Source: Pseudomonadota bacterium
GTDB lineage: Bacteria > Pseudomonadota > Gammaproteobacteria > Pseudomonadales > Halomonadaceae
DNA length: 64,000 nucleotides
NCBI GenBank assembly: GCA_051749645.1
Contig: JBNJIT010000004.1
Coordinates: forward strand, 89,158 to 153,157
Reading direction: 5' to 3'
The notes beneath the pieces were generated by a model that had not been told where the DNA came from, made no database searches, and saw only the letters and a list, made by a program, of their open reading frames with translations. Shown here in pieces: positions 10,743 to 55,741 of this stretch; position 1 is the first letter of the stretch, and every line of letters begins with the position of its first letter. Made by a program: the position numbers and the translations under genes.

Positions 10743-12437
10743 CTATCCGTCGAGCCGGCGCTGGGGCTCGCCGCGGGCCGGGGCGTTGCCCGCCACATAG
10801 TAGGGGGCGTCGCTTTTCGACAGCCGCTCGCGGCCGCGGACGCGATCGGCGATCTTCTCGGCGAGCATGATCGTCGGCGCGTTGAGGTTGCCGGTGGGGA
10901 TCAGCGGGAAGAGCGAGGCATCCACCACCCGCAGGCCCTCTACGCCGTGTACCCGGCCCTGGCCGTCCACCACGGCATCGTCGCCCTCGCCCATGCGGCA
11001 GCTGCCGCAGGGGTGGTAGGCAGTCTCGGCGTGGGCACGCACGAAGGCGTCCAGCTCGGCGTCGGAGGCCACGTCCGGCCCCGGCGAGATCTCCCGGCCG
11101 CGGTAGGGGTCGAAGGCGGGCTGGGCGATGATCTCCCGGGTCAGGCGGATGGCGTCGCGGAACTCCTGCCAGTCCTTGTCGGTGGACATGTAGTTGAACA
11201 GGATGCTCGGCGCCGCCTCGGGATCTTGGGAGGTGAGGCGGATGCGCCCGCGGCTCTCCGAGCGCATGGAGCCGACGTGGGCCTGGAAGCCGTGGGCCTG
11301 CACCGCGCTCTTGCCGTTGTAGCTGATGGCGATGGGCAGGAAGTGGTACTGCAGGTTGGGCCACTCTTCCTGGTCATTGGAGCGGATGAAGCCACACGCC
11401 TCGAACTGGTTGCTGGCGCCGATGCCGGTGCCGAGGAACAGCCATTCGGCGCCGATCTTCGGCTGGTTGTACCACTTCAACGCCGGGTAGAGGGAGATCG
11501 GCTGCGTGCACTCGTACTGGATATACATCTCCAGGTGGTCCTGGAGATGGGCGCCGACGTTGTCGTTGACGTGCACCGCCTGGATGCCGAACTCGTCGAG
11601 CACGTCCTTGGGGCCCACACCGGAGCGCTGCAGGATCTGCGGCGAGGCGATGGCACCGGCGCACAGCAGCACTTCGCGGCGGGCACGGACCTGCCGTGGC
11701 TGGCCCTTGTGCGTATAGCGCACGCCTGTGGCGCGTTTGCCTTCGAATTCGATGACGTCGGTGGTGGCACGGGTCTCGATGGTCAGGTTCTCGCGCCCCT
11801 TGGCCTGGTCCAGGTAGCCGCGGGCGGTGGAGGCACGCCGGCCCTTGGGGGTGACGAAACGGTCCATGGGGCCGAAGCCCTCCTGTCGGTAACCGTTGAC
11901 GTCCTCGGTCTCCGGGTAGCCGGCCTGCTTGCCCGCCTCGATGAAGGTGCGGTAAAGGGGGTTGTTGTCGTCTTTCGGCGTGGTGACGTCGATTGGCCCG
12001 CTATCGCCATGGTAGGCGTTGCCACCGATGTCGCGTCGCTCGGACTTCTTGAAGTAGGGCAGACAGTCGGCGTAGGTCCAGTCTTCGAGGCCCGTTGCCT
12101 TGGCCCAGTTGTCGTAGTCCAGTGCGTTGCCGCGGATGTAGCACATGCCGTTGATCAGCGAGGAGCCGCCCAGGCCCTTGCCCCGGCCGCACTCCATGCG
12201 CCGGCCGTCCATGTGGGGCTCGGGGTCGGTCTCGAAGGCCCAGTTGTAGCGCTTGCCCTGCAGCGGATAGGCGAGCGCCGCCGGCATCTGGGTGCGGAAG
12301 TCGAAGCGGTGGTCGGGGCCGCCGGCTTCCAGCAGCAGCACCTGTACGTCCGGGTCTTCGGTGAGCCGGGCGGCGAGCACGTTGCCGGCGGAGCCGGCGC
12401 CGATGATGACGTAGTCGAATTCGCGAAGCTGGGACAT
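10743..12437 (-). CDS. betA: Choline dehydrogenase
   Basis: GMC oxidoreductase: [40 protein letters not shown]; downstream of betB. Confidence 0.96.
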
Positions 12438-12506
12438 GGCGGTTTCCCAAAAAATTGAAACGGAGGTGGCGTCGGGCGTCAGAACCCCAGTCCGCGGCTG
12501 ATCCGT

Positions 12507-12593
12507 GGACAGGTCTACGAGGGGGCGCTATGAATCCCTCCTTGGACGCTACCGATGCCATCCCTGGCATCGGACCCCCTCTATGACCTGTCC
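12507..12593. mobile_element. MITE/REP-like element, 87 bp, with terminal inverted repeats and an internal hairpin
   Basis: GGACAGGTC-TAC-GAGGGGG ... CCCCCTC-TAT-GACCTGTCC termini; internal CCGATGCCA-TCCC-TGGCATCGG; partial second copy at 10664. Confidence 0.5.
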
Positions 12594-12632
12594 CCGGCGC
12601 CGCTCATCTTGGTGGCCGCAACACGACTCACG

Positions 12633-12653
12633 GCTCGTGGCTCGAGGCCCGTG
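12633..12653. repeat. Three degenerate heptamers (minus strand CACGGGC CTCGAGC CACGAGC)
   Basis: Immediately 3' of the betB stop; same units as at 23192-23247. Confidence 0.6.
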
Positions 12654-12655
12654 AC

Positions 12656-14125
12656 TTAGAACACCGACTCGAAGGGGCCCATCTCGATCTGCACCGACTT
12701 GGTCTGGGTGTAGTGGGCAAGCGTCTCGAGGCCGTTCTCGCGGCCCACGCCGGACTGCTTGTAGCCGCCCACCGGCATCTCGGCGGGGGATTCGCCCCAG
12801 GTGTTGATCCAGCAGATGCCAGCCTGCAGGCGATGGATCACCCGGTGGGTGCGGTTGAGACTTTCGGTGAACAGGCCGGCGGCAAGACCGTAGTGGGTGG
12901 CGTTGGCGCGGCGAATCACTTCCTCTTCGTCACCGAAGGCGAGGACTGCCATTACCGGGCCGAAGATTTCCTCGCGTACGATGCGCATCTCGTCGGTGCA
13001 GTCGGTGAACACCGTGGGCGCCGCCCAGGCGCCTTTTGCCCGCTCGCCCTGATTCCAAGCGTCTCCGCCGGCCAGCAGCGTGGCACCCTCCTGCTTGCCA
13101 AGCTCGATATAGGAGAGCACCTTGGCCTGGTGCTCGAAGCTCACCAGTGGGCCGAAATTGACGCTCGGGTCCAGCGGGTCGCCGGCCTTGATGCGTGCCA
13201 CGCGCTCGGCGATCTTCGCTTCGAAGTCCGCCTTGACGGCATCCTCGACGAAGACCCGGGTACCGTTGGTGCAGATCTGCCCGCTGGAGTAGAAGTTGGC
13301 CATCATGGCGGCGTCGGCGGCGCGGTCGAGGTCGGCATCGGCGAACACGATCAGCGGCGACTTGCCGCCCAGTTCCATGGTCACTTCCTTGAGGGTGGAG
13401 CCTCCGGCGGCGGCCATCACCTTCTTTCCGGTGTTCACCTCGCCGGTGAAGGAAACCTTGTCGATGCCGTCATGTTCGGTGAGCATCGCGCCGACCGCGC
13501 CGTCGCCGTGAACGACGTTGAAGACGCCGTCGGGAAGGCCCGCCGCGGTGAAGATCTCGGCCAGCTTCAGGGTAGTGAGCGGGGTGACCTCGCTGGGCTT
13601 GAAGACCACGGCGTTGCCGGCAGCCAGCGCCGGGGCAGCCTTCCAGCAGGCGATCTGGATGGGATAGTTCCAGGCGCCGATGGCACCGATCACGCCCAGC
13701 GGCTCGCGACGGGTGTAGACGAATGAGTCCTCGCGCAGGGGGATCTGGGTGCCCTCGATTGCCGCTGCCAGGCCGGCGTAGTACTCCAGGGCATCGGCAC
13801 CGGTGACGATGTCCACCGCGGCGGTCTCGCTGATCGGCTTGCCGGTGTTGCGCGTTTCGAGCTCGGCGAGTTCATCGTTGCGCTCTCTCAAGATCGCCAC
13901 GGCGCGCTGCAGGATGCGGCCACGCTGCATGCCGCTCATGGCGGCCCAGGCGCGCTGGCCCTCGCGGGCTGCGGCCACGGCGGCGTCTACGTCGGCGGCG
14001 GAAGCCTGCTGTACGCGGGCCAGCACGCTGCCATCGAAGGGGTTGACGACCTCGAAGGTCGTGCCGGAAGTGGCGTCGACAGGGCAGCCGCCGATGTAGA
14101 GAGTTTGGATGTCGAGCTGTGCCAT
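12656..14125 (-). CDS. betB: Betaine aldehyde dehydrogenase
   Basis: [24 protein letters not shown] and EEIFGPV motifs; real start MAQLDIQ at 14125 with RBS GGAGG. Confidence 0.96.
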
Positions 14126-14169
14126 GAGGCCTCCTGTTCGGGCCAGGTCGGTGTGCGGAAGGTGATGGC

Positions 14170-14787
14170 TCAAGCGCCGTCCGGGTCGTAAGCCGCCACC
14201 TCGTGGCCGGCGAGCAGCTGGTCCAGCGCCGCATGCGCCAGGCGGCTGGCCTTGTCGGCATCCAGCTTGCCGGGCGTGAGGGCACCGCGCAGCCAGAGCC
14301 CGTCGATCACGGCGGCCAGGCCCGCTGCTGCACGGTGAGCATCGTCGCGGGGCATGAGACGCCGGAACTGGTGGCACAGGTTGGAGTGCAACCGGCGATG
14401 GTTCACCTGTTGAAGCCGCGCCAGGCGCGGCTTGTGCATGCTGCTGGCCCAGAAGGCGAGCCAGGTCTTGGCCACGGCGCTGGTGACCTGGCTGCGGTCG
14501 AAGTTGCCATCGATGATAGCGCCGAGGTGGGCTCGGGCGCTGGTGTCCTCGAGCGACTGGCGACGTGCGGCCACCGCGTTTCCCAGGTCGTGGAGGATCT
14601 GGCGCATGGTCGCTTCCAGCAGACCGTCCTTGCCGCCGAAATAGTGGCTGATGATCCCCGCCGAAACGCCGGCATGGCGGGCAATGCGCATGACGGTGGT
14701 ATCCGCCAGGCCGACTTCGTCGATAGCGACCATCGTGGCCTGGATCAACTGCTGTCGACGGATGGGTTCCATTCCGACCTTGGGCAC
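14170..14787 (-). CDS. betI: Choline-responsive TetR-family repressor
   Basis: GTG start giving [15 protein letters not shown]; [10 protein letters not shown] and IDGLWLRG motifs; RBS AGGAG. Confidence 0.95.
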
Positions 14788-14861
14788 CTGCGCACTCCTG
14801 TTAGCGGTTTCTGTCTTGCAACCACACCTGTAGACGTGGTTACCATGTGCACAGCTTGCCA

Positions 14862-14889
14862 TTTCTTTATTGAACGTTCAATCAAGAAA
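14862..14889. promoter_or_regulatory. BetI operator
   Basis: TTTCTT-T-ATTGAACGTTCAAT-C-AAGAAA near-perfect 28-bp palindrome between divergent betI and choX; core matches the known BetI box. Confidence 0.85.
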
Positions 14890-14951
14890 GGGCAGTCGTG
14901 AGCCTGGCGCCACGGCTATACTCAAGTGGCCAACCGAAAAGGGGAACTCCG

Positions 14952-15917
14952 ATGAACAAGACGAACCTGTCGACTCTCACCGCTTTGGGCATGGGTGCCG
15001 TTGCCATGGGGCTAGCAGCCTCACCGCAGGCAGCCGACGAACCCGAGAGCTGTAGTACCGTTCGCTTTGCTGAAGTGGGCTGGACCGATATCACCGCCAC
15101 CACGGCGCTGACCACCGAAGTGCTGGAGGCGATGGGCTACGATACCCGCATCGATACCGTCTCCGTGCCCATCGCTTATTCCGGCATGAAGAATGGCGAT
15201 TTCGATGTCTTCCTGGGGAACTGGATGCCTTCCATGGCCTCGATCAGCGATCCCTACATCGAGGATGGCGACGTCGACCGCCTGAGTGCCAACCTCGAGG
15301 GTGCCAAGTACACCCTGGCCGTACCGCAGTACGTCTATGACGCCGGTGTCACCTCGGTGGAAGACTTGGCCGAGCACGCCGATGAGTTCGACAGCGCCAT
15401 TCACGGCATCGAAGCCGGCAACGATGGCAACGAACTGATCCAGCAGATGATCGACGATGATGCCTTTGACCTGGGCGATTGGCAGTTGGTCGACTCTAGC
15501 GAGGCGGGCATGCTGGCCGAGCTGCGCGCTCGGGTGCCGGACGAAACATGGATGGTGTTCCTGGGTTGGGAACCGCATCCCATGAATACCAACTTCGACA
15601 TGGCTTACCTGGAGGGCGCCGACGACTACTTCGGCCCCAATCTGGGCGGCGCCACCGTCTACACCAACACCCGCGGCGGTTACGTCGGGGAGTGTGGCAA
15701 CGTCGGCACCCTGCTGGACAATCTTGAGTTCACTCTGGAGATGGAGAACCAGCTGATGGGCGAGATCATGGATGAGGGTGAAGACCCCCGCGATGCTGCC
15801 CGCGCTTATTTGCAGGCCAACCCCGAGGTACTGGATGACTGGCTCGAAGGCGTGGAGACCCGTGACGGCGAGCCGGCGCTGCCGGCGGTGAAGGCCGAAC
15901 TCGGACTCGAAGGCTGA
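14952..15917 (+). CDS. choX: Choline ABC transporter substrate-binding protein
   Basis: Signal peptide; VGWTDITATT, FLGNWMP, GIEAGNDGN and FLGWEPHPMN motifs. Confidence 0.88.
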   Translation: MNKTNLSTLTALGMGAVAMGLAASPQAADEPESCSTVRFAEVGWTDITATTALTTEVLEAMGYDTRIDTVSVPIAYSGMKNGDFDVFLGNWMPSMASISDPYIEDGDVDRLSANLEGAKYTLAVPQYVYDAGVTSVEDLAEHADEFDSAIHGIEAGNDGNELIQQMIDDDAFDLGDWQLVDSSEAGMLAELRARVPDETWMVFLGWEPHPMNTNFDMAYLEGADDYFGPNLGGATVYTNTRGGYVGECGNVGTLLDNLEFTLEMENQLMGEIMDEGEDPRDAARAYLQANPEVLDDWLEGVETRDGEPALPAVKAELGLEG

Positions 15918-38316: not shown

Positions 38317-38325
38317 GGAGGAGAC

Positions 38326-42571: not shown

Positions 42572-42657
42572 GCGGTGCTGGACATGGTCCAGGTGTCCGG
42601 AGACGGTTAGACAGTGCCTTCTTGTAGACGAATACAGACGCAATCGAGGAAGTCGAT

Positions 42658-44104: not shown

Positions 44105-45838
44105 TCAGAACAAGCCGACGATCTCGCCGTCGTCGTCGATGTCGATGCGTGAGGCAGCGGGTTCGGCGCTGAGACCCGGCATAGTGCGAATTTCGCCGCA
44201 TAGCGCGTAGACGAAGCCGGCGCCGGCGGAGAGGCGCACCTCGCGCACCGGCAGCAACCAGCCGGTGGGCGCTCCCAGCAGTGTCGGATCGGCGGAGAGC
44301 GACAGGTGACTCTTGGCGATGCACACCGGAAGGTGGCCGTGGCCCTGGGCCTGGAACGCCTCGAGTTGCTGACGGGCCTGGGGCGCGAGCTCGATGCCAT
44401 CGGCACCGTAGATCCGCGTGGCGATGCGTTCGATCTTGTCGGCGAGCGGCAGCGCATCCGGGTAGAGGAATCGGAAGTCGCTACCGGCATCGGCTGCCTC
44501 GGCGACCGCCTCTGCCAGCTCCACGGCTCCGGCGCCGCCATCTCGCACGTGGGTGGAGACTGCCGCGCGTACGCCCGCTGCCGCGGCGATGTCGTGGATG
44601 ATGGCGTGTTCGCTGGGGTAGTCCGTCGGGAAGGCATTGATGGCCACCACCGGGGTGATGCCGTGCGCGCGGATATTGTCGATCTGCTTGACCAGGTTGC
44701 TGGCGCCGGCCTGCACGTCCTGCGGGCTTTCGTCCTGCATCGCGGCCGGCAGGGGGTGGCCGGGGCGCACCGTGTGCCGGCCCGAGTGGTACTTGAGCGC
44801 GCGTACCGTGACGACCAGAACGGCAGTGTCGGGTGTGAGCCCTGAGCTGCGGCATTTGATGTTGAAGAAGCGTTCCGCCCCCATGTCCGCACCGAAGCCT
44901 GCCTCGGTGACCAGGTAGTCGCTGCCGTGGATGCCGAAGCGGTCGGCGACGATCGACGAGTTGCCGTGGGCGATGTTGCCGAAGGGGCCGGCGTGGATCA
45001 GCGCTGGGGCATGCTCTAGCGTTTGCAGCAGGTTGGGCTTGATCGCCTCCTTGAGCAGGACGGTCATGGCGCCGGCCGCACCGATGTCGTCGGCGGTGAC
45101 CGGCTCGCCGTCGCGGGTCTCGCCCACCACCATGCGGCCGAGCCGCTGGCGCAGGTCCGCCAGGGAGTCGGCCAGGGCGAGCACTGCCATGACCTCGGAG
45201 GCGGCGGTGATCTCGAAGCCGCTCTGGCGTGTCACGCCATCGCCGCGCCCGCCAAGGCCGGTGACGATGTGGCGCAAGGCGCGGTCGTTGAGATCCAGCA
45301 CGCGCGACCAGCACACCGAGCGAGGGTCGAGATCGACCCCGCGGCGCTGGTGGAGATGGTTGTCGATCATTGCGGCGAGCAGGTTGTGCGCCGCCGTGAC
45401 GGCATGAATGTCGCCGGTCAGATGTAGATTGATGCGCTCCATGGGCACTACCTGACTGAGCCCGCCGCCGGCGGCACCGCCCTTGAGCCCCAGGGTGGGG
45501 CCAAGGGAGGGTTGGCGTATGGCCACCGTGGCCCCATGGCCCAGCTGCTGCAGACCCTGGACGAGACCGATGGCGGTAGTGGTCTTGCCCTCGCCCAGGG
45601 GCGTGGGGGTGATCGCCGAAACCACCACGTAGCGGCCACGTGAGCGGCACTCGAGATCGCTCAGTGCGCCCAGGTCGAGCTTGGCCACACCGCGACCGTA
45701 GGGCTCCACGGCATCGCCGGGCACGCCCAGCCGATGGGCGATCTCCTCAATGGGCCACAGCCGTGCCTGTCGCGCGATGCTGAGATTGTCCTGCATGGGA
45801 GGTGTTGCTGTGGACAGTGCCTGGGGTTCGGGGGCCAT
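44105..45838 (-). CDS. fhs: Formate-tetrahydrofolate ligase
   Basis: TPTPLGEGKTT, KGGAAGGG, HAGPFGNIAHG, EAGFGADMG and TMPGL motifs; start 45838 has RBS AGGAG. Confidence 0.95.
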   Translation of the reverse strand: MAPEPQALSTATPPMQDNLSIARQARLWPIEEIAHRLGVPGDAVEPYGRGVAKLDLGALSDLECRSRGRYVVVSAITPTPLGEGKTTTAIGLVQGLQQLGHGATVAIRQPSLGPTLGLKGGAAGGGLSQVVPMERINLHLTGDIHAVTAAHNLLAAMIDNHLHQRRGVDLDPRSVCWSRVLDLNDRALRHIVTGLGGRGDGVTRQSGFEITAASEVMAVLALADSLADLRQRLGRMVVGETRDGEPVTADDIGAAGAMTVLLKEAIKPNLLQTLEHAPALIHAGPFGNIAHGNSSIVADRFGIHGSDYLVTEAGFGADMGAERFFNIKCRSSGLTPDTAVLVVTVRALKYHSGRHTVRPGHPLPAAMQDESPQDVQAGASNLVKQIDNIRAHGITPVVAINAFPTDYPSEHAIIHDIAAAAGVRAAVSTHVRDGGAGAVELAEAVAEAADAGSDFRFLYPDALPLADKIERIATRIYGADGIELAPQARQQLEAFQAQGHGHLPVCIAKSHLSLSADPTLLGAPTGWLLPVREVRLSAGAGFVYALCGEIRTMPGLSAEPAASRIDIDDDGEIVGLF

Positions 45839-45910
45839 GAGGGGTCTCCTGATGCCGGTTGCGGTAGGCGTGCGCCTCGTTTCAGTATTTTCGCCATGAG
45901 CCATCGCCGT

Positions 45911-45947
45911 TTGTGCGCAGGCGTCAACCGGCTTGGTCGCAGCGACA
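45911..45947 (-). promoter_or_regulatory. Tandem GlxA/ArgR-type operator upstream of fhs
   Basis: Minus strand TGTCGC-N8-AG-N5-TGACGC-N8-AA (21-bp period); -10-like AATACT starts at 45889. Confidence 0.6.
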
Positions 45948-46052
45948 CCGGTGCGATGTCTCTGCAGGTGGGGCGGTTGACGTGGCTATGCAACTTGGTG
46001 CCATATTCATTGTCGTTTAACCAGAACGGCGAGATGGCTCCGGGAGGCGAGC

Positions 46053-47096
46053 ATGGAACCCCACGAGTTGCCGGGCGATGGCCAATACGACATCGGGTTC
46101 CTGTTGATCCCGGGGTTCTCCCAGTTGGCGTTCTCCTCGGCGCTGGAGCCGCTGCGGATGGCCAATCACCTCACCGAGCGGCGGCTCTATCGCTGGCATC
46201 TGCTGAGCCGTGACGGTAAACCGGTCACGGCCAGCAGCGACTTGGCGACCGGCGTCGACGCTGCCCTGTCTTCGGCTCCAAGCCTCGATCTGGTGGTGGT
46301 GTGTGCCGGCGTTGAGGTGCAAAGCCATTGCGATCGCGACACTCTGCAGTGGCTACGGCGCCAGGCCGGTCGGCACCTGCCGCTGGGAGCCGTGTGTACC
46401 GGAGGCTACGTGCTGGCCCAGGCGGGGCTGCTCGACGGCTATCGCTGCACCCTGCACTGGGAGCACATATCTAGCCTCCATGAAGCCCTGCAGTTTCCCC
46501 GTGTGACCTTCTGCTCGCAGCTCTTCGTGCTCGACCGGGATCGCTACACCTGTTCGGGCGGCATTGCGCCGCTGGACATGATGCTCACCTTGATTGCCCG
46601 TCAGCAGGGGCTGGGGCTGGCCGAGGCCATCGCCGAGGAGTTCATCCACGAGCGCATTCGTGGCGTGGGCGATCGCCAGCGCAATCCGCTGCGCGTGCGC
46701 CTGGGTCATAGCCACCCCAAGCTGGAGGAGGTGGCCACGCTGATGGAAGCCAATCTTCAGGAGCCGCTCACCCTCGACGAACTGGCCAGCCACGCCGATC
46801 TCTCGCGGCGCCAGCTGGAGCGGCTGTTTCAGCGCTACGTCGACTGTCCGCCTCTGAAGTACTACATGGACCTGCGCTTGATGCGGGCTCGCCAGCTGCT
46901 GCGCCAGACCCACATGCCGATCACCGACGTGGCCATGGCGTGCGGCTTCGTTTCTCCACCGCACTTCACCAAGAGCTATCGAGACCACTTCGGTCATTCG
47001 CCAAGCCGCGAACGGGAGCGTAGACGCGATCGCGAAGCGGCCGCCCAGGCCGCCAGTCCCCTGTTATCGCACTCTCCGGCCGATCATACCGAGTGA
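46053..47096 (+). CDS. GlxA-family AraC regulator (DJ-1/PfpI + HTH; GbdR/SouR-like)
   Basis: SALEPLRMAN, GAVCTG, TLHWEH, TCSGG and LSRRQLERLF motifs. Confidence 0.92.
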   Translation: MEPHELPGDGQYDIGFLLIPGFSQLAFSSALEPLRMANHLTERRLYRWHLLSRDGKPVTASSDLATGVDAALSSAPSLDLVVVCAGVEVQSHCDRDTLQWLRRQAGRHLPLGAVCTGGYVLAQAGLLDGYRCTLHWEHISSLHEALQFPRVTFCSQLFVLDRDRYTCSGGIAPLDMMLTLIARQQGLGLAEAIAEEFIHERIRGVGDRQRNPLRVRLGHSHPKLEEVATLMEANLQEPLTLDELASHADLSRRQLERLFQRYVDCPPLKYYMDLRLMRARQLLRQTHMPITDVAMACGFVSPPHFTKSYRDHFGHSPSRERERRRDREAAAQAASPLLSHSPADHTE

Positions 47097-47099
47097 GGC

Positions 47100-49667
47100 T
47101 CAGCTGCGGGGGCGCAGGTTCTCCGGGTCGTAGAGCGGGCGATACCCCACGGCGGCCACCCGCAGCGGGTAGTGCTCGCCGAAGTACTCCATGATCAGGG
47201 CGTTGCCTTCCCTGGCATCGCCCTCCGGCAGGTAACCCAGAGCGATGACTTTCTCCACCGAGGGGCCGTAGGCGATGCTGGTCACGTAGGAACGGCGTCT
47301 CACGCTGTCGATCAGTACGTCGCCGCTGGCCGGGTCGAGGATAGGGGCATGGCCGACCGGGAAACGTGGCGTTCCCGCGGCGTCGCGATTCTCCTCCATG
47401 ACCAGGGTGCACAGATAGGCGGGCTGCCGGTCGCGTTCGCGCTGAGCGAGATAGGCCGCCTTGCCGTGGAAGTCCGCCGCCTTGACCTTGGGGCGGGCCA
47501 GTCCCGCCTCGTAGAGATTGTATTCGGTGAGCAGGTCGACGTTCTGCAGCCGCAGGCTCTTCTCCAGACGCCGGCTGTTGGCGTAGGTCTCGACGCCCAC
47601 CGGAGTCACGCCCTGCTCATGGAGAAGATCCCAGAGCGCGAGCCCGTAGCTGAAGGGGACGTAGAGCTCCCAGCCCTGTTCGCCCACGTAGGAGATGCGG
47701 AAGGCCCACACCGGCAGGCCGCGAACGCGAATCTCGCGGGCCGTGGCGAAGGGGAAGCGCTCGTCGTCGAGTTCCTCGGGGGCGTCGGCGACGGCCTGCA
47801 GCGTGCGTCTGGCGTTGGGACCCCACAGCCCCAGAGTGGCCAGGCTGTCAGTGCGGTCCTCGACGTGCAGACCCTCGAGCCCGCGGGCCTGGGCCATGCG
47901 CGTCATCCACACGAGGTCACGATGGCCGGTGTCGCCGCCGCAGATCACCCGGTAGCGGTCGTTGCCCAGGCGGACGATGGTGAGATCGCCGTGCACGCCG
48001 CCCCATTCATCCAGGAAATGGGTGTAGACGCCCTTGCCGGTCGGGGTGTCGCCGCCGACCTTGGCGACCGAGAGGTATTCCAGCAGGGCCTCGGCGTCCG
48101 GGCCGGAGACGTCGTAGATGGCGAAGTGGGAGAGATTGATCATGCCCACGTCGTCGGAAAGCGCCAGGTGCTCGGCGTTGGAGACGCGCCAGAAGTGGCG
48201 GCCGTCCCACTCGTCGAGTCGCTCGGGTATGCGCTCGGCGTAGCGCTCCAGCAGTGGCTCGTTGGCCGCGTAGCCGTGGGCGCGTTCCCAGCCGGCGGCT
48301 TCCATGAAGTGGCCGCCGAGCTCCCGCTCGCGGGGCCAGAAGGGGCTGCGCCGGAGGTTGCGGCCACTCTCGAAGGGTTCGCGAGGGTGCACCGGTGGGT
48401 CGTAGATCTTCCTGGCGATCTCCTGGCAGCGCCCGTACACGTAGTCGGGTGTCTTCTGTACCGGATAGAAACGGGCGATGTCGATGCCGTGGGGGTCGAG
48501 CTCCGGCTTGCCCCGGGTGAGCCAGTCGGCGAGTACCTTGCCCATCCCCGGGCCGTCCTTGACCCACACCGCTTCGCAGAACCACAGCCCGCGGGTCTCG
48601 GGGGACTCGCCGACCAGTGAGCCGCCGTCGTTGGTGACGGAGAGCAGACCGTTGAAGGAGTGCTTTTCGTCCCAGCCCAATTCGCCGAGCGCGGGGGTCA
48701 GTTCGATGGCGCGCTCGAAGGCGTCCATGACCTGATCCAGCTCGAGATCGCGCATGGAGGGCGACAGCCGTGCCTGGTGCCGCTCGAGGATGTCCTGGGG
48801 AGGGACGAGTCTGGGCGAGTGGGCCTCGTAGTAGCCCCACTCGAGCTGACCGCCTTCGGTGCTGGATGGGTCGCCGGTATCGCGCAGGTAGGCGGAGTTG
48901 CCCTGGTCGCGCAATAGCGGGTAGCCGATCTCCAGGCCAGTGCCGGCAAAGGTGTCGAAGGGGCCGAAGAAGAGCAATGGATGCTCGACGGGCATCAATG
49001 GCAGGGCGGCGCCGCCCATGGCGGCGGGAATCGGTCCCCAGATGCCGGAGGTGACGATGACCACCGACGTGGCGATATAGCCCTTGGCAGTCTCCACGCC
49101 ATGAATGCGACCGTTGCGTACGTCGATGCTCAGCGCTGGGGTATCGGCGAAGGCCTTCAGGGCTCCCGATGCCACCGCCCGCTCCACCAGTTCGCCGGCG
49201 ACCTGCTGCGAGCGCGGCACGACCAGGCCGGCGTCGGGGTCCCACATCGCTCCCTGGATCAGGTTGCGGTCCAGCAGTGGAAAGCGTTCGGCGGCCTCGG
49301 CGGCACTGATCATGCGCACGTTGGTGCCGAAGGCTTTGCCCGAAGCGACCTTGCGCTTGAGCTCAGCCAGGCGGGCATCGTCGCCGACGCGCGCCACCTC
49401 CAGGCCGCCGATTCGCTGGTAGCGGCCCATCCGCTCATAGAAGCGCTGGCTGTAGGTGGTGGTGTAGCACGACATCTTGTCGTGGGAGGTCATGTAGCAG
49501 AAGTCGGAGGCGTGGGACGTCGAGCCGATATCCGAGGGGATCGACGACTTGTCGAGGCCGACCAGGTCGTCCCAGCCCTGCTCGATCAGGTGGTGGGCCA
49601 CCGAAGCGCCGACGATGCCGCCCTGGCCGATGATGACCGCGCGTGCCTGCTGGGGTAATGCCGCCAT
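47100..49667 (-). CDS. Dimethylglycine oxidase/dehydrogenase-like flavoprotein (FAD domain + GcvT folate domain)
   Basis: GQGGIVG dinucleotide fold, GSTSHA flavinylation-type His, VEHP, RLEKS and SIAYGPSV motifs; start MAALPQQ with RBS AGGAGG. Confidence 0.8.
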   Translation of the reverse strand: MAALPQQARAVIIGQGGIVGASVAHHLIEQGWDDLVGLDKSSIPSDIGSTSHASDFCYMTSHDKMSCYTTTYSQRFYERMGRYQRIGGLEVARVGDDARLAELKRKVASGKAFGTNVRMISAAEAAERFPLLDRNLIQGAMWDPDAGLVVPRSQQVAGELVERAVASGALKAFADTPALSIDVRNGRIHGVETAKGYIATSVVIVTSGIWGPIPAAMGGAALPLMPVEHPLLFFGPFDTFAGTGLEIGYPLLRDQGNSAYLRDTGDPSSTEGGQLEWGYYEAHSPRLVPPQDILERHQARLSPSMRDLELDQVMDAFERAIELTPALGELGWDEKHSFNGLLSVTNDGGSLVGESPETRGLWFCEAVWVKDGPGMGKVLADWLTRGKPELDPHGIDIARFYPVQKTPDYVYGRCQEIARKIYDPPVHPREPFESGRNLRRSPFWPRERELGGHFMEAAGWERAHGYAANEPLLERYAERIPERLDEWDGRHFWRVSNAEHLALSDDVGMINLSHFAIYDVSGPDAEALLEYLSVAKVGGDTPTGKGVYTHFLDEWGGVHGDLTIVRLGNDRYRVICGGDTGHRDLVWMTRMAQARGLEGLHVEDRTDSLATLGLWGPNARRTLQAVADAPEELDDERFPFATAREIRVRGLPVWAFRISYVGEQGWELYVPFSYGLALWDLLHEQGVTPVGVETYANSRRLEKSLRLQNVDLLTEYNLYEAGLARPKVKAADFHGKAAYLAQRERDRQPAYLCTLVMEENRDAAGTPRFPVGHAPILDPASGDVLIDSVRRRSYVTSIAYGPSVEKVIALGYLPEGDAREGNALIMEYFGEHYPLRVAAVGYRPLYDPENLRPRS

Positions 49668-49746
49668 GCTCCTCCTCCTGGTGTGCCGCCTGGGTTGGCC
49701 GTCGCTGTCACTATTCAAGCTAATGCACCCAGCCTGCGATTGCTGT

Positions 49747-49779
49747 CCAGCGACGACTTGCATTTGCATCGTGACGACA
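49747..49779 (-). promoter_or_regulatory. Tandem operator facing the flavoprotein gene
   Basis: Minus strand TGTCGT-N8-AA-N5-AGTCGTCGCTGG; -10-like TAGCTT starts at 49722. Confidence 0.65.
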
Positions 49780-49805
49780 GCGTGAGGCAAAGCGTCGGCA
49801 TGCAC

Positions 49806-49838
49806 TGTCGCTGGCGCCAAAGTCGCTGTCGTCGCTGG
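49806..49838 (+). promoter_or_regulatory. Tandem operator facing the DmdA-like gene
   Basis: TGTCGC-N8-AA-N5-TGTCGTCGCTGG; -10-like TAGCTT at 49864. Confidence 0.65.
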
Positions 49839-50004
49839 TGCCATGGCAGTGGCCAGTGAGCATTAGCTTTACATCAGGGTAGCGCGTTTGCGCGCCTCGG
49901 AGGTCGTCGCAGTCGATCAGTGTCACGTCCGACAGCCTCCTGGCATTCATTCGATTTCGCCTCGCCGCCGGTGCGTTCCGTGGGGCGGGCAAGGAGCGGC
50001 AATC

Positions 50005-51201
50005 ATGTCCCAGGCCATCGAGAGCATTCAGCACACCCAGGCGGCGCCGGAGATCCTGCTCTATCCGCGTATTCGCAAGTCGCCGTTCTTCTATGCCTCG
50101 CGGCGGCATGGAGTGCGCAAGTACAGCGTCTACAACCACCACTACCACCCGCGCCTCTACACCGATCCGGTGGATGAGTACTGGGCGCTGGTGGAGGGCG
50201 TCACCCTGTGGGACGTGGGAGTGGAGCGCCAGATCGAGATCAGCGGCCCGGATGCCTTCGCCTTCACCCAGCGCTTGGTGCCCCGCGACATGCGCCAGTG
50301 TCAGGTGGGGCAGTGCAAATACGTCTTCGTCACCGCCCCCGACGGCGGCATCATCAACGACCCGGTGCTGTTGCGCATCGAGGAGAATCGTTTCTGGCTG
50401 TCGCTGGCGGACAGCGACGTGCTGCTGTGGTGCCAGGGGTTGGCCTACCATTCCGACCTCGACGTCACCCTCCGGGAGGTCGATGTGGCCCCGGTCCAGG
50501 TTCAGGGGCCCAAGGCCAAGGCGGTGATGGTCGACCTGTTCGGTGAGGCCGTGCTGTCGATGCCCTATTACCATCTGATGGAAGCCGAACTCGACGGCAT
50601 GTCGGTGGTGATCTCGCGCACCGGTTACTCCGGCGAAATCGGCTACGAGATCTATCTGCGCGAGGCGAGCCGCCACGGGGAAGCGCTGTGGCAGCGGGTC
50701 TTCGAGGCGGGGAGGCCCCATGACATGCAGGTGATCGGCCCCTGCCACATCCGACGCATCGAGGGGGGGATCCTCGCTTTCGGCTGCGACATCTGGTACG
50801 ACACCAACCCCTTCGAAGTGGGCATGGGTTATGACTGGATGGTCGACCTGCGTGGCGACGATGACTTCATCGGTCGCGCTGCGCTAGAGCGTATCAAGGC
50901 CGAAGGGGTTTCGCGCAAATTGGTGGGAGTGGAAATCGACGGTCCCAGCGTCGGCTACTTCACCGACGGTGCCATGATCGACGTCTTCCCGGTCCTCGAT
51001 AGTGCCGGCACGCGTATCGGCCAGGTGACCTCGGCCACCCGTTCACCGCGGCAGGAGCGCAATATCGGCTATGCCATGGTGCCGATCGAGCATAGCGAGT
51101 TGGGCACGCCGCTGCGCATCGAGGCCAATACTGGCCTGCAGGAAGCGCGGGTGGTTTCCAAGCCGTTCCACGACCCCAGCAAGGCGATTCCCAAGGGGTG
51201 A
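50005..51201 (+). CDS. GcvT-family THF-dependent methyltransferase, DmdA-like
   Basis: YSVYNH, LWDVGVERQIEISGPD, INDPVLLRIEENRFWLSLADSD, VQGP, SRTGYSGEIGYEIY and NPFE motifs; RBS AAGGAG. Confidence 0.8.
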   Translation: MSQAIESIQHTQAAPEILLYPRIRKSPFFYASRRHGVRKYSVYNHHYHPRLYTDPVDEYWALVEGVTLWDVGVERQIEISGPDAFAFTQRLVPRDMRQCQVGQCKYVFVTAPDGGIINDPVLLRIEENRFWLSLADSDVLLWCQGLAYHSDLDVTLREVDVAPVQVQGPKAKAVMVDLFGEAVLSMPYYHLMEAELDGMSVVISRTGYSGEIGYEIYLREASRHGEALWQRVFEAGRPHDMQVIGPCHIRRIEGGILAFGCDIWYDTNPFEVGMGYDWMVDLRGDDDFIGRAALERIKAEGVSRKLVGVEIDGPSVGYFTDGAMIDVFPVLDSAGTRIGQVTSATRSPRQERNIGYAMVPIEHSELGTPLRIEANTGLQEARVVSKPFHDPSKAIPKG

Positions 51202-51212: not shown

Positions 51213-51233
51213 ACCCCACCGGTGGTGGGGTCA
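51213..51233. terminator. Hairpin between convergent genes
   Basis: GACCCCACC-GGT-GGTGGGGTC. Confidence 0.6.
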
Positions 51234-52607
51234 TACGTGGCGCAGATACCAGTCGTACTCGAGCTTGTTCACCACCTGCATGGCCGCATCGCGCTCGGCG
51301 CGACGGTTGGCCAGGAAGACGGCGAGGAAGTCGTGTCCCAGTGCCGCATTGAGCACGGCACTCCCTTCCAGTAGGTCGAGAGCTCGTTGCCAGCTGTTGG
51401 TGAGGCTGGGGGATACCTGGGCGTAGGCGTTGCCGGTGATGGGGGGCGGCGGTTCGAGCCGATGATCCAGGCCATGCTCGATGCCGGCCAGCAGGGTCGC
51501 CACCAGGAGGTAGGGGTTGGCGTCGGCGCCGGCTACGCGATGTTCGATGCGTCGCGCTCCGTTGGGCCCGGCTGGAACACGCAGTGCGACCGAGCGGTTG
51601 TCGTATCCCCAGGTGGGTGTCATGGGTACGTAGAGGCCCGGCTGGAAACGGCGGTAGGAGTTGAGATTGGGCGCGCAGATGGCCATGCTCGCCGGCATCG
51701 TGGCCAACAGCCCGGCTACGGCATGGTGCAGGCGGGGCGTGCCGAGTGGCTCGCCATCCGGGTCGGCGAAGACGTTGTCGCCGGCCGGGTCGAGCAGGCT
51801 GATGTGCACATGAGTGCCGTTGCCGGCTTCCTGCCCATAGGGCTTGGCCATGAAGGTCGCCTCGAAGCCGTGCCGAAGAGCGACACCCTTGATCAGCCGC
51901 TTGAGCAGCACGGCGCTGTCGCAGGCGGTCAGGGCGTTTGCGCAGTGCACCAGGTTGATCTCGAACTGGCCGGGAGCGCACTCCTTGAGCGCCGTGTCCA
52001 GCGGCAGCCCCTGGATGTCGGCAGCGTGCTGGATCGCCTCGAGAAAGTCGGCGTACTCATCGAGCTCGCTGATCGAGTAGAGCTGGCTCTGAGTGGCGCG
52101 TTCGCCGTTGCCGGGTGACAGCGGCGGCTGGACCATGCCCAAGGCATCCCGGGCGCGATCCACCAGGTAGAATTCCATTTCCACGGCGACCACCGGCGTC
52201 AAGCCGGCGTGCTGAAAACGGGCCAACACGCGAGACAATACCTGGCGAGGGTCGGCAAAGAAGGGGCTGCCGTCGAGCTCGCTCATGGTCATCAACAGCT
52301 GGGCCTGGCGCCCCTCCCGCAGCCAGGGGCTGGGGGCGAGGGTCCCCGGTATGGGGTGACAGACTCGGTCGCCGTCACCGCTCGACAGGCCCAGGCCGGT
52401 TTCCTCGATGGTGTTGCCATTGATGTCCAGCGCGAACACCGACGCCGGCAAGTGGATGCCCTGCTCATACGCCTTGGCGAGGTTGCTGCCTGGCAGCCGC
52501 TTGCCGCGCATCACACCGTTGAGGTCGCTGATCAGCAGGTCGACGCTGTCGATGTCCGGATGCTGCTCGAGAAAGGCATGGGCCTCGGCGACTGGGCGAG
52601 ACGACAT
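51231..52607 (-). CDS. puuA: Gamma-glutamylpolyamine ligase (PuuA-like)
   Basis: SDLNGVMRGKR, AVEMEFYL, ECAPGQFEIN, TFMAKPY, NRSVALRVP and GADANPYL motifs. Confidence 0.85.
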   Translation of the reverse strand: MSSRPVAEAHAFLEQHPDIDSVDLLISDLNGVMRGKRLPGSNLAKAYEQGIHLPASVFALDINGNTIEETGLGLSSGDGDRVCHPIPGTLAPSPWLREGRQAQLLMTMSELDGSPFFADPRQVLSRVLARFQHAGLTPVVAVEMEFYLVDRARDALGMVQPPLSPGNGERATQSQLYSISELDEYADFLEAIQHAADIQGLPLDTALKECAPGQFEINLVHCANALTACDSAVLLKRLIKGVALRHGFEATFMAKPYGQEAGNGTHVHISLLDPAGDNVFADPDGEPLGTPRLHHAVAGLLATMPASMAICAPNLNSYRRFQPGLYVPMTPTWGYDNRSVALRVPAGPNGARRIEHRVAGADANPYLLVATLLAGIEHGLDHRLEPPPPITGNAYAQVSPSLTNSWQRALDLLEGSAVLNAALGHDFLAVFLANRRAERDAAMQVVNKLEYDWYLRHV

Positions 52608-52793
52608 GGTGTCACCTGTGCGTGGTTGGCTTTGATGGCTATCTTTCAGTTGCTGTCAGGTGTTGTCAAATCCTTTACGACAGAAAGCTGTTCGTTGCGC
52701 CTGACTGGATCGCTATAGAGCTCTTCGGTGCGCATTGTTTGGGGATTCTTGCAGTTTTTCGTGACGAGTTGGCAATCGGCATTTGGGGCTGTA

Positions 52794-52812
52794 TGTTGAG
52801 CAAAGTATAACA
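52794..52812. promoter_or_regulatory. Candidate PuuR/PauR operator
   Basis: TGTT-N11-AACA in the AT-rich divergent puuA/spuC region; related TGTTGTC...CGACA at 52661-52682. Confidence 0.3.
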
Positions 52813-52853
52813 TTGCTCCCATGAGTGGCTCGCGCCGAGGAGACTCCACCATC

Positions 52854-54242
52854 ATGAGCCAGGAATTGAAAGCGCTCGACCGCGCCCATCATCTTCACTC
52901 CTTCACCGACTTCAAGGCCCTGGGAGAAGAGGGCAGTCGTATCATCACCCATGCCGAGGGTGTCTACATCCACGACAGTGAAGGCCATCGGATTCTCGAC
53001 GGCATGGCCGGGCTGTGGTGCGTCAACCTGGGCTATGGCCGCGAAGAGCTCGTCGCTGCGGCCAGCGTGCAGATGCGCGAACTGCCTTACTACAACAATT
53101 TCTTCAAGACGACGCATCCGCCGGCCGTGAAGCTCGCCGAGACGCTGTGTCGCCTGGCGCCTCCCTACGTCAATCATGTCTTCTTCACCGGCTCCGGCTC
53201 CGAGGCCAACGATACAGTGCTGCGCATGGTGCGACGTTTCTGGGCGCTGCGGGGCAAGCCACGCAAGCAGTGGGTGATCGCTCGCGAGAACGCCTACCAC
53301 GGCTCCACCGTTGCCGGCATGAGTCTGGGCGGCATGGCGCCGATGCACGCCCAGGGCGGTCCGCTGGTGCCGGGTATCGCCCACGTCCGCCAGCCCTACT
53401 GGTTTGACGAAGGGCGAGACCGGGACCCCGAGGCCTTCGGCCGCGAGTGCGCTGCCGCCATCGAAGCGAAGATCCAGGAGCTGGGGGAAGATAACGTCGC
53501 TGCCTTCATTGCCGAGCCCGTGCAGGGTGCTGGCGGGGCCATCATTCCGCCGGAAAGCTACTGGCCGGCGGTGAAGGCGGTGCTGGCGAAATACGACATC
53601 CTGCTGGTGGTCGACGAGGTGATCTGCGGTTTCGGACGTCTCGGTGAATGGTTCGGTAGCCAGCACTACGGTCTCGAGCCCGATCTGATGCCGATTGCCA
53701 AGGGACTCTCGTCCGGCTATCTGCCCATCGGTGGCGTGCTGGTGGGGGATCGGGTGGCCGATACGCTGATCGAAGCGGGTGGCGAGTTTTTCCACGGCTT
53801 CACCTACTCCGGCCATCCGGTCTGTGCCGCCGTGGCATTGAAGAATCTCGAACTGATGGAAGCCGAGGACGTGGTGGAACGCGTTCGCGACGAGATCGGT
53901 CCCTACATCGCCAAGCGCTGGGGCGAACTGGCCGATCACCCGCTGGTGGGTGAGGCGCGTTCGCTGGGGCTGATCGGCGCCCTGGAGCTGATCGATCCGG
54001 CCTGCGGCGAGCGTTTTCCCAAGGCGTGGGGAGCGGGCAACCTGTGCCGGGACATCAGCTTTGAGGCCGGCCTGGTGATGCGTTCGGTGGGTGATACGAT
54101 GATCATTTCGCCGCCCCTGGTCATCACCCGCGAGCAGGTCGACGAGCTGGTCGGCCTGGCCCGCCAGGCGCTGGACGAAACCGCTGAACGTCTGGCCCAT
54201 CGCCGGGCTCGCCAACCCCATACAGAGGAGAAATCCGCATGA
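52854..54242 (+). CDS. spuC: Class III aminotransferase, putrescine-pyruvate type
   Basis: LDGMAGLWC, SGSEAND, YHGST, DEVICGFGR and IAKGLSSGY (PLP Lys) motifs; start MSQELK with RBS GAGGAG. Confidence 0.82.
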   Translation: MSQELKALDRAHHLHSFTDFKALGEEGSRIITHAEGVYIHDSEGHRILDGMAGLWCVNLGYGREELVAAASVQMRELPYYNNFFKTTHPPAVKLAETLCRLAPPYVNHVFFTGSGSEANDTVLRMVRRFWALRGKPRKQWVIARENAYHGSTVAGMSLGGMAPMHAQGGPLVPGIAHVRQPYWFDEGRDRDPEAFGRECAAAIEAKIQELGEDNVAAFIAEPVQGAGGAIIPPESYWPAVKAVLAKYDILLVVDEVICGFGRLGEWFGSQHYGLEPDLMPIAKGLSSGYLPIGGVLVGDRVADTLIEAGGEFFHGFTYSGHPVCAAVALKNLELMEAEDVVERVRDEIGPYIAKRWGELADHPLVGEARSLGLIGALELIDPACGERFPKAWGAGNLCRDISFEAGLVMRSVGDTMIISPPLVITREQVDELVGLARQALDETAERLAHRRARQPHTEEKSA

Positions 54243-55741
54243 GCGCCCAGCATCGTCCCGAGAGCCGTGCCGACTGGCAGGCCCTAGCCGACGCCTTGAC
54301 CTTCGAGTCTCGCGCCTTCATCGACGACGACTTTGCGGCAGCGGCCAGCGGCGAGACCTTCGAATCGCGCAACCCGGCAACCGGCGAGCTCCTGGCCGAG
54401 GTGGCGAGCTGCGATGCCCCGGATGCCGAGCGCGCGGTGGCTGCCGGACGCGCCGCCTTCGCCGCTGGCGGCTGGTCGCGCCTGGCTCCCGGTAAGCGCA
54501 AGAAGATCCTGCTGCGGCTTGCCGACCTGATGGAAGACCACAAGGATGAGCTGGCACTGCTCGACACCCTCGACATGGGCAAGCCGATCGGCAGTTCCCT
54601 CGGCGACATGGCCGGTGCCATCGCTTGCTTGCGCTACAACGCCGAGGCCATCGACAAGGTCTTCGGCGAGGTGGCGCCCACCGGCGAGGAAAGCCTGGCG
54701 CTGGTACTGCGTGAGCCGCTCGGTGTGGTGGCTTCCATCGTGCCGTGGAATTTCCCGCTGATGATGACCGCGTGGAAGATCGCGCCGGCACTGGCCGCCG
54801 GCAACAGCGTCATCCTCAAGCCCTCGGAGAAGTCGCCCCTCTCGGCGTTGCGGCTCGCCCAGCTGGCCCAGCAGGCGGGCCTGCCGCGCGGTGTCTTCCA
54901 GGTACTGCCGGGCTTTGGCCATACCGTGGGCAAGGCATTGGCGCTCTCCATGGAGGTCGACTGCCTCTCCTTCACGGGCTCCACCGCCACCGGCAAGCAG
55001 CTGATGCAATATGCCGGGCAGTCCAACCTCAAGCGGGTCTACCTGGAGTGCGGCGGCAAGAGTCCCAACCTGATCTTTGCCGACTGCAAAAACCTCGACC
55101 GGGTGGCCAAGCATGCCGCGGCGGCCATCTTCCACAATCAGGGAGAGGTGTGCATCGCGGGCTCACGACTGTTGGTCGAGAACAGCATCCGCGAAGCGTT
55201 CGTCGACAAGGTGCTGGCCGCTGCCGAGACCATGCAGCCGGGCGACCCTCTCGATCCCGACAGTTTCATGGGAGCCATCGTCGACGAGGCTCAGCACCGC
55301 CGTATCCTCGATTACATTCGCCAGGGGGTGGAAGCGGGAGCCCGGTTGCGTACCGGTGGCCAGGCGCTGTCCGGGCGGGGGCTGTTCATACCGCCAACGG
55401 TGTTCGACGGCGTGACGCCGACGATGGCCATCGGCCGCGAGGAAGTCTTCGGCCCGGTGCTCTCGGTGTTCGGTTTCGACAGCGAGGAAGAGGCCATCGA
55501 ACTGGCCAACGACAGCGTCTACGGCCTTGCGGCCGGCCTGTGGAGCCAGGACATCGACCGCATCATGCGCGTGACGCGCCGACTCCATTCGGGCCAGGTG
55601 TTCGTCAACAACTGGGCCGGCGGTGATCAGACCGTGCCCTTCGGTGGCGTCAAGCAGTCGGGCAACGGCCGCGACAAGTCGATGCACTCACTGCAGGAGT
55701 ACTCGGAGCTCAAGACGGTGTGGATGGCGCTGTCGACCTGA
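54239..55741 (+). CDS. puuC: Aldehyde dehydrogenase (PuuC/PauC-like)
   Basis: VPWNFP, FTGST, LECGGKSP, NQGEVC and EEVFGPV motifs; ATGA overlap with spuC. Confidence 0.85.
   Translation: MSAQHRPESRADWQALADALTFESRAFIDDDFAAAASGETFESRNPATGELLAEVASCDAPDAERAVAAGRAAFAAGGWSRLAPGKRKKILLRLADLMEDHKDELALLDTLDMGKPIGSSLGDMAGAIACLRYNAEAIDKVFGEVAPTGEESLALVLREPLGVVASIVPWNFPLMMTAWKIAPALAAGNSVILKPSEKSPLSALRLAQLAQQAGLPRGVFQVLPGFGHTVGKALALSMEVDCLSFTGSTATGKQLMQYAGQSNLKRVYLECGGKSPNLIFADCKNLDRVAKHAAAAIFHNQGEVCIAGSRLLVENSIREAFVDKVLAAAETMQPGDPLDPDSFMGAIVDEAQHRRILDYIRQGVEAGARLRTGGQALSGRGLFIPPTVFDGVTPTMAIGREEVFGPVLSVFGFDSEEEAIELANDSVYGLAAGLWSQDIDRIMRVTRRLHSGQVFVNNWAGGDQTVPFGGVKQSGNGRDKSMHSLQEYSELKTVWMALST

Follow-up and report, generated by a model that had tools for sequence, protein, structure and literature searches.

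A DmdA-like protein of the Halomonadaceae that lies outside the DmdA family, and its candidate role as a glycine betaine:tetrahydrofolate methyltransferase

The DmdA-like gene and its product

We have analysed a stretch of 64,000 nt from a member of the Halomonadaceae (positions 89,158 to 153,157 of contig JBNJIT010000004.1, assembly GCA_051749645.1; 3.86 Mb in 40 contigs), which we call the window. Our subject is a gene encoding a protein related to DmdA, the demethylase of dimethylsulfoniopropionate (DMSP). It closes a conserved folate and demethylation module that spans positions 44105-51201, where it follows genes for a formate-tetrahydrofolate ligase, a GbdR-like regulator and a flavoprotein of the dimethylglycine oxidase (DMGO) and dimethylglycine dehydrogenase (DMGDH) family (Table 1). 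Judged by its sequence the protein is a real relative of DmdA, and DmdA-like in type, yet it lies outside the DmdA family as curated. Its conserved neighbours point to glycine betaine as a candidate substrate.

The open reading frame (ORF) encodes 398 amino acids and is free of stop codons. There is an AAGGAG sequence 8 nt 5′ of its ATG, and the start of the protein matches that of database homologs with sizes of 396-401 aa. Two domains are recognized, GCV_T (PF01571, 145 bits) and GCV_T_C (PF08669, 56.9 bits), with no FAD domain; this is the architecture of DmdA (i.e. a GcvT fold with both domains in about 370-400 aa). The top match among the NCBIfam models is DmdA (NF009133), with a score of 334.6 bits that falls below the curated equivalog cut-off of 410. 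The second is the folate domain of trimethylamine N-oxide (TMAO) demethylase, at 221 bits. Among proteins of known structure the best match is DmdA of Pelagibacter ubique (3tfh; 228.5 bits, residues 10-368 of 369), followed by GcvT of B. subtilis at 168.5 bits.

A previous reading of the sequence alone had proposed that the motifs of the protein fit DmdA better than GcvT, and the profile scores, the structural matches and an alignment all agree with this. The motifs are present as SVYNHHYHP, LWDVGVERQIEISGPD, IINDPVLL and FWLSLADSD. The alignment comprised 18 DmdAs scoring over the NF009133 cut-off, 84 members of the clade that contains the window protein (the module clade, defined below) and the GcvT of the same genome. 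There are 68 conserved positions common to the DmdA and module clades, of which 34 differ in GcvT, including those behind YN, W(DV), N.P and W.S.A.S. Thirty-four positions are common to all three. The N-terminus had been described as distinct, and this too is correct; it reads YPRIRKSPFF where DmdA has SRRLRxTPF.

The protein is not the GcvT of this genome. The scores on three GcvT models are all below cut-off (165.3, 181.1 and 131 bits, against 235.85, 300 and 459), the assembly encodes a bona fide GcvT, scoring 544.6 bits, on another contig, C10, which also carries GcvP (1486.8 bits), and no gcvH or gcvP is linked to the DmdA-like gene, as the sequence-only reading had remarked. Identity as LigM or DesA is not supported by the scores of 50.6 and 75.1 bits on models NF047885 and NF047633 (cut-offs 580 and 800), where only the N-terminal half was aligned. 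By these scores the protein belongs with neither GcvT nor LigM.

Separation from DmdA

Matches over the NF009133 cut-off were found in 16 of 401 Pseudomonadota genomes, scoring 423-700 bits. The same genomes often carry DmdA paralogs as well, which in this search scored 260-392 bits. A tree of 44 sequences was calculated using IQ-TREE with the LG+C20 model (supports are given as ultrafast bootstrap/SH-aLRT). Rooting with GcvT and DMGO-type folate domains was dropped because these attached inside the ingroup on very long branches with poor support, and the tree was built without them. It includes SAR11 DmdAs that are ~89-94% identical to the crystallised enzyme, and not the functionally ratified Ruegeria and SAR92 DmdAs.

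The over-cut-off DmdAs form a single clade (100/98), and the window protein is outside it. It belongs to the module clade (98/98), together with proteins from other Halomonadaceae, Arhodomonas, Salinisphaerales and Actinomycetota, to which it is 67-97% identical. A third clade of sub-cut-off proteins (100/99) joins the module clade at 99/90, and other subfamilies fall between the DmdA clade and the module clade. An exclusive grouping of the DmdA and module clades is rejected by the approximately unbiased (AU) test, with p = 1e-5.

The two clades also differ in residues that are invariant within each, with 19 positions fixed differently between the 18 DmdAs and the 84 module-clade members. Using P. 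ubique numbering, K199 and Q200 of DmdA are replaced by G (or A, S) and E, while G232, C233, N235 and E238 are replaced by I, G, C and R, in 84/84 or nearly all of the module-clade members. The fixed residues of the DmdA segments SKQGG and PGCPNLIE are thus replaced; we claim no link to the binding of DMSP. W197 (column W171) has been proposed to be specific for DMSP (PMC7487153). The corresponding residue is Y in the window protein, and also in 13 of the 18 over-cut-off DmdAs, including most of those from roseobacters. Most DmdAs carrying Y, this position does not discriminate, and we therefore dropped it as a marker of specificity.

The window protein is 34-40% identical to the over-cut-off DmdAs, and ~40% identical to 3tfh. 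Functional SAR92 DmdAs share only 35-40% identity with the ratified enzymes (PMC10746254), and therefore percent identity alone decides nothing. The argument is carried instead by the clade, the fixed residues and the gene context. No dmdB, dmdC or dmdD (acuH) is linked to the DmdA-like gene here or in the loci of 45 relatives, so that the absence of a dmdBCD context seen in the sequence-only reading extends beyond this genome. An AMP-type CoA ligase was not found in the window ORFs that were scanned (those at 104-718, 14170-14862, 24767-26095, 28217-28846 and 34318-34818 were not all covered), nor was an acyl-CoA dehydrogenase found within 39 kb of the gene.

Distribution and conserved neighbourhood

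A scan for orthologs using one genome per species returned 80 loci. Forty-five are from Halomonadaceae (88-97% identity to the window protein), and the others include Arhodomonas (86-87%), Salinisphaerales and other Gammaproteobacteria (73-80%), and Thermoleophilia/Solirubrobacterales (67-71%). Saccharopolyspora orthologs reach about 71%. An 89% identical copy of this bacterial gene lies on a 2.5-kb contig assigned to a Natrialbaceae archaeon, a record that is likely to be mislabelled. When the family was sampled evenly the ortholog was present in 16 of 201 Halomonadaceae genomes; a different 14 genomes had only a ~51% identical paralog, and one had both. The host had been considered unexpected for such a gene, a view that the 45 species carrying the ortholog do not bear out. 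The patchy spread within the family, taken with the high identity in Arhodomonas, suggests horizontal transfer. There is no sign of recent transfer in the GC content, which is 0.61-0.68 throughout.

The gene had also been thought to stand without context, whereas its neighbours in the module are conserved. When counted by tblastn across the 45 Halomonadaceae loci, a DMGO/DMGDH-type flavoprotein gene adjoins the DmdA-like gene in every one, and there is a GbdR-like regulator in 43 and fhs in 42. A divergent gene of the methylenetetrahydrofolate reductase (MTHFR) family lies directly downstream in 33 of the 45, and in Arhodomonas. In the loci of the Thermoleophilia type an MTHFR gene is found within 10 kb, and is mostly adjacent, in 23 of 27, with the flavoprotein in 21 of 27.

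Table 1. Features of the window discussed in the text
Feature	Position	Strand	Evidence
DmdA-like GcvT-fold protein, candidate glycine betaine:tetrahydrofolate methyltransferase	50005..51201	+	PF01571 + PF08669, NF009133, 3tfh, clade
Divergent control region between the flavoprotein and DmdA-like genes, rich in TGTCGC/TGTCGT-type repeats	49668..50004		read directly
FAD + GcvT-domain flavoprotein, dimethylglycine oxidase/dehydrogenase family	47100..49667	-	best PDB match 1pj5, 414 bits
GlxA/GATase1-AraC regulator, GbdR paralog	46053..47096	+	446 bits on GbdR model NF052371 (cut-off 480)
Formate-tetrahydrofolate ligase (fhs)	44105..45904	-	NF010030, 787 bits (cut-off 652)
betI-betB-betA (minus strand) and choline ABC substrate-binding protein (plus strand)	10743..15917		NCBIfam, all over cut-off

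The module in the window

The best solved relative of the flavoprotein is dimethylglycine oxidase of A. globiformis. Its reading frame is open to 49844 (914 codons); the alignment with homologs of 855-870 aa begins only at M60, and translation probably starts there (at 49667) to give a protein of 855 aa. The divergent intergenic region would then be about 335 bp in length, and it contains no match to the sigma-70 consensus. Only the true GbdR, at position 89256 of C10 (613 bits), matches the GbdR model better in this genome than the regulator of the module does. The gene 3′ of the DmdA-like gene is on the opposite strand, ending 29 nt past the stop codon.

The genome contains two candidates for an MTHFR, i.e. 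canonical metF (291 bits) on contig C2 and another gene of the MTHFR family that adjoins folD on C11, together with MetH. The C11 gene encodes 353 aa and is paired divergently with folD (741-3566). Its product is similar (192 bits) to the MTHFR portion of bifunctional proteins that combine homocysteine S-methyltransferase with MTHFR, and it may stand in for the MTHFR that is missing from the module.

The bet genes do not belong to the module but are found 34 kb upstream, with housekeeping genes (prs, ychF, hemA, prfA and prmC) in between. BetA, BetB, BetI and the choline-binding protein score 946, 866, 279 and 455 bits, respectively. These genes make glycine betaine from choline, and we propose that they supply the substrate of the module.

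Catabolic genes of polyamine type are found on both sides of the module (35848-43950 and 51231-55741). They encode a potABCD-like transporter, two PuuB-like FAD oxidases, two glutamine synthetase (GS) homologs resembling gamma-glutamyl-amine synthetases, a class-III aminotransferase and a PuuC-like aldehyde dehydrogenase (663 bits, cut-off 850). These flanks are kept only within Halomonas, being missing in 8 of the 45 Halomonadaceae loci and in all carriers outside Halomonas, and we judge a functional link to them unlikely. The module is therefore autonomous. It appears to have been inserted into a polyamine-type cluster, with the flanks forming the insertion site and not part of the system.

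Betaine and sarcosine genes beside the orthologs in other carriers

More distant orthologs are placed among genes whose function is clearer. In Saccharopolyspora and a related actinomycete (loci L005 and L007) the order is soxGADB, GntR, DMGO, the DmdA-like gene, MTHFR and formate-tetrahydrofolate ligase (FTHFS). With 893 bits to 1pj5, the flavoprotein of Saccharopolyspora is clearly orthologous to the dimethylglycine oxidase of A. globiformis. Locus L007 is titled Parasphingorhabdus pacifica (P0100), but from its PPE/EspG neighbours and its grouping with Saccharopolyspora it is likely to be mislabelled. In a metagenome-assembled genome (MAG) of the Actinomycetota the order is GMC oxidoreductase, permease, aldehyde dehydrogenase, IclR, DmdA-like protein, MTHFR and a DMGO-like protein, which as gene order is the layout of a pathway from choline to sarcosine.

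A 312-kb metagenome scaffold with a 75% identical ortholog provides a bridge to the window. Here the DmdA-like gene is accompanied by genes for MTHFR, the flavoprotein, FolD, FTHFS, the serine dehydratase SdaA, GFA, SoxB and SoxD. The flavoprotein is 75% identical to that of the window over 855 aa, starting from M60. This operon therefore ties the flavoprotein of Halomonas type to the production of sarcosine.

Genomes carrying the ortholog were searched for known enzymes of betaine demethylation. GbcA was found over the profile cut-off only in the three Halomonadaceae, and was absent at that cut-off from two Arhodomonas, one gammaproteobacterial MAG and four Thermoleophilia carrier genomes. 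Proteins of the MttB family were absent from all nine of the genomes searched for them. A stand-alone gene of the betaine-homocysteine methyltransferase (BHMT) type was absent from three of the four Thermoleophilia genomes, in which the PF02574 frames are all of MetH length. Given the betaine-pathway context and the missing known betaine demethylases, the simplest reading is therefore that the DmdA-like enzyme would convert glycine betaine into dimethylglycine.

Related DmdA-like subfamilies

The proteins of a sister subfamily are ~50-51% identical to the window protein, with scores on the DmdA model of roughly 360-390 bits. They occur in the Halomonadaceae (L132), at a further locus (L119) and as roseobacter counterparts. 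Their genes are clustered with those for OsmC, MTHFRs of MetV/MetF type, an enoyl-CoA hydratase and an AMP-forming CoA ligase. The L132 cluster adds FolD and a BCCT transporter, and that of L119 a GlxA-type regulator. The L119 genome also carries a true DmdA beside the protein of the sister subfamily. Either DMSP or a betaine bearing a carboxylate chain could be the substrate of the sister subfamily. Since MTHFR genes are linked to both the module clade and the sister subfamily, such linkage is a general mark of DmdA-like proteins, and fits methyl-tetrahydrofolate as their common product. The remaining neighbours differ according to the subfamily, and this fits different substrates.

There is a third variant of the module in an organism of the same order as that of the window (L127). 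Its flavoprotein is 71% identical to that of the window, and genes for FTHFS, a regulator of GlxA type and an MTHFR-like protein are also present, but the DmdA-like protein sits on a long branch and shares only 42% identity with the window protein.

A parallel betaine route in the same genome

The genome also has a canonical route of betaine degradation, in an island at ~89-117 kb on C10. This contains the true GbdR, GbcA (855 bits) and GbcB (680 bits), DgcA/DgcB-like genes, etf, formaldehyde and formate dehydrogenases, glyA, soxBDAG, purU and another regulator of the GlxA type. The last of these is next to gbcAB, and scores only 186 bits on the GbdR model.

A proposed function for the module

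We suggest, with moderate confidence, that the DmdA-like protein is a methyltransferase that would convert glycine betaine and tetrahydrofolate (THF) into dimethylglycine and 5-methyl-THF. The sequence-only reading had offered a choice between a DMSP demethylase in an unexpected host and a member of a DmdA-like clade acting on a different onium substrate. The analysis favours the latter, and the conserved gene context narrows the substrate to glycine betaine. We infer the substrate, the 5-methyl-THF product and the regulation of the module from gene content and family relationships; the product in particular is suggested by the linkage to MTHFR.

In the proposed mechanism, the DmdA-like enzyme would act as a cofactor-free methyltransferase with a GcvT fold, moving a methyl group from the quaternary ammonium of betaine to N5 of THF and releasing dimethylglycine and 5-methyl-THF. 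The divergently transcribed flavoprotein would then oxidize dimethylglycine to sarcosine, trapping the second carbon as 5,10-methylene-THF, and SoxBDAG encoded elsewhere in the genome would complete the conversion to glycine. The 5-methyl-THF could be used by MetH, or oxidized by MTHFR (adjacent in most relatives, and for which metF on C2 and the C11 gene are the candidates here). FolD and Fhs would take the carbon to formate with a gain of ATP. The GbdR paralog would control the module, which in this genome would run in parallel with the oxygen-dependent GbcAB route.

Several observations weigh against this proposal. The adjacent divergent MTHFR gene is missing from the genome of the window, where tblastn finds no MTHFR of that type genome-wide, and from 11 other Halomonadaceae loci (one of these, L053, is cut off at a contig edge and may not lack it). 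A stand-alone PF02574 protein of 322-333 aa, which may be a BHMT, is encoded in the Arhodomonas genomes. The identity of the Halomonas flavoprotein to the lineage of validated dimethylglycine oxidase is low, at about 33%. The module is redundant in the genome studied, given the GbcAB, DgcAB-like and SoxBDAG set on C10 with its truer GbdR. Because of this redundancy, and because the module regulator is a paralog, the inducer or the substrate may be a different one. DmdA itself is reportedly unable to use glycine betaine, and we know of no precedent for transfer of a methyl group from a trimethylammonium to THF within a GcvT fold. Full-text literature searches found no paper describing a betaine demethylase that is THF-dependent or has a GcvT fold, and for the demethylation step a 2022 paper on marine glycine betaine metabolism gives only BHMT and GbcAB (PMC9321204).

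Some of these points give weight to an explanation in which the chemistry is retained, i.e. an onium methyl group is transferred to THF, but the osmolyte that serves as physiological substrate in Halomonas is a different quaternary ammonium or sulfonium compound, with the flavoprotein acting on the matching tertiary amine. Candidates are beta-alanine betaine, proline betaine, choline, gamma-butyrobetaine and dimethylsulfonioacetate. A complete GbcAB/DgcAB/Sox set with its own GbdR, the paralogous regulator (446 vs 613 bits), the distance of the flavoprotein from validated DMGO (414 bits) and the clearly different contexts of the related DmdA-like subfamilies could all be accommodated in this way, as could the location of the module in most Halomonas amid GS-like ligases, FAD oxidases, an aminotransferase and an aldehyde dehydrogenase. 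However, the polyamine-type flanks are absent from eight Halomonadaceae loci and from every non-Halomonas carrier, orthologs with 67-75% identity are found in operons that run into sarcosine oxidase, serine dehydratase or DMGO, and the flavoprotein of Halomonas type is itself present in such an operon. We therefore consider another osmolyte to be rather unlikely.

It is quite improbable that the protein is not a methyltransferase but an accessory of the aminomethyltransferase type, trapping formaldehyde or an iminium released by an oxidase as 5,10-methylene-THF in the manner of the folate domains of SoxA, DMGO and Tdm. Such a role would be consistent with the GcvT fold, with the match to the TMAO demethylase folate domain and with the lack of an adjacent MTHFR gene in this genome, and FAD amine oxidases that have no folate domain are encoded nearby (35848-37167 and 42658-43950). 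But these oxidase genes are absent from the non-Halomonas carriers, the motifs of the protein are specific to DmdA and not those of GcvT, and genes of the clade and its sister are as a rule linked to MTHFR, which would be expected of a producer of 5-methyl-THF and not of methylene-THF.

That the protein is a true DMSP demethylase of a divergent clade, yielding methylmercaptopropionate, is hardly credible, for although DmdA is its best-scoring characterised family, its identity to DmdA is similar to that of the functional SAR92 enzymes and the habitats of halomonads contain DMSP, this is contradicted by the sub-cut-off profile score, the position outside the DmdA clade with the result of the AU test, the replacement of the clade-fixed residues (K199, Q200, C233, N235 and E238 among them), the lack, among the ORFs scanned, of a linked CoA ligase, acyl-CoA dehydrogenase or hydratase, and the 67-71% identical proteins of soil Actinomycetota that adjoin choline, dimethylglycine and sarcosine genes.

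If glycine betaine is indeed the substrate, the module might provide a route for the first two demethylations that is independent of O2, corrinoid and homocysteine, keeping both carbons on folate and gaining ATP at Fhs. In halophiles that also possess the Rieske oxygenase GbcAB it could be used where oxygen is scarce (e.g. during denitrification) or as a source of the methyl group of methionine, and it would be a fourth, hitherto undescribed way of starting betaine catabolism, spread horizontally between halophilic Proteobacteria and soil Actinomycetota. We put this forward tentatively, as a possibility that is open to considerable doubt.

Comparison with known systems

DmdA (EC 2.1.1.269; 3tfh; NF009133) is the closest known system. 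The two have in common the two-domain GcvT fold over the full length, the motifs YNH, WDV..ERQ.E..G.D, NDP and W.S.ADSD, and, as proposed, a redox-neutral transfer of an onium methyl group to THF. The known product of DmdA is 5-methyl-THF, and the MTHFR linkage of the module clade fits this. They differ in score and clade, in the replacement of DmdA-fixed residues 199, 200, 232, 233, 235 and 238, and in the occurrence of the module clade in soil Actinomycetota. The module has dimethylglycine, sarcosine and one-carbon folate genes as neighbours in place of dmdB, dmdC and dmdD, and its proposed substrate is a quaternary ammonium, where that of DmdA is a sulfonium.

LigM/DesA of Sphingobium sp. 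SYK-6, with MetF and LigH, is a GcvT-fold methyltransferase that generates 5-methyl-THF and is clustered with MTHFR and formate-THF ligase. The logic of producing methyl-THF beside oxidizing one-carbon genes is the same, but the sequences are distant (51-75 bits vs 580-800), the substrates are aryl methyl ethers and the gene context is different. GcvT is alike in its fold and folate-binding core, and is set apart by the sub-cut-off scores and by the lack of linkage to gcvH or gcvP.

To our knowledge the first demethylation of betaine is currently credited only to GbcAB, BHMT or corrinoid MtgB systems. The Rieske monooxygenase GbcAB/BmoAB, BHMT (in which homocysteine is the acceptor) and the MtgB-type corrinoid systems carry out the step proposed here, from glycine betaine to dimethylglycine, feeding DMGO, DMGDH or DgcAB and then Sox. 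They are unrelated in fold and mechanism. By contrast with these, the proposed route would require no O2, NADH, homocysteine or corrinoid, and the methyl group would be kept as methyl-THF.

Many genomes have enzymes for dimethylglycine and sarcosine but none of GbcAB, BHMT or MtgB, and if our proposal is correct the DmdA-like enzyme would fill this gap. It would extend chemistry of the DmdA type from sulfonium to ammonium substrates, and sub-threshold 'dmdA' matches in metagenomes from halophiles and soils would be betaine genes and not DMSP genes. The organism studied here would have two parallel routes for betaine, differing in their demands for oxygen and energy.

Other genes in the window

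At one end of the window (2030-10505) there are genes for an enoyl-CoA hydratase, an ADP-forming (ACD-type) acyl-CoA ligase of 733 aa, a second hydratase, a transporter of CitMHS/DASS type and an acyl-CoA dehydrogenase of FadE type. The ligase (2916-5117) has the same architecture as the DMSP lyase DddX. This identity was rejected, as hydroxyacid-CoA ligases score higher; the 4-hydroxybutyrate/3-hydroxypropionate-CoA ligase matches give 382 and 376 bits, against 211 bits for DddX.

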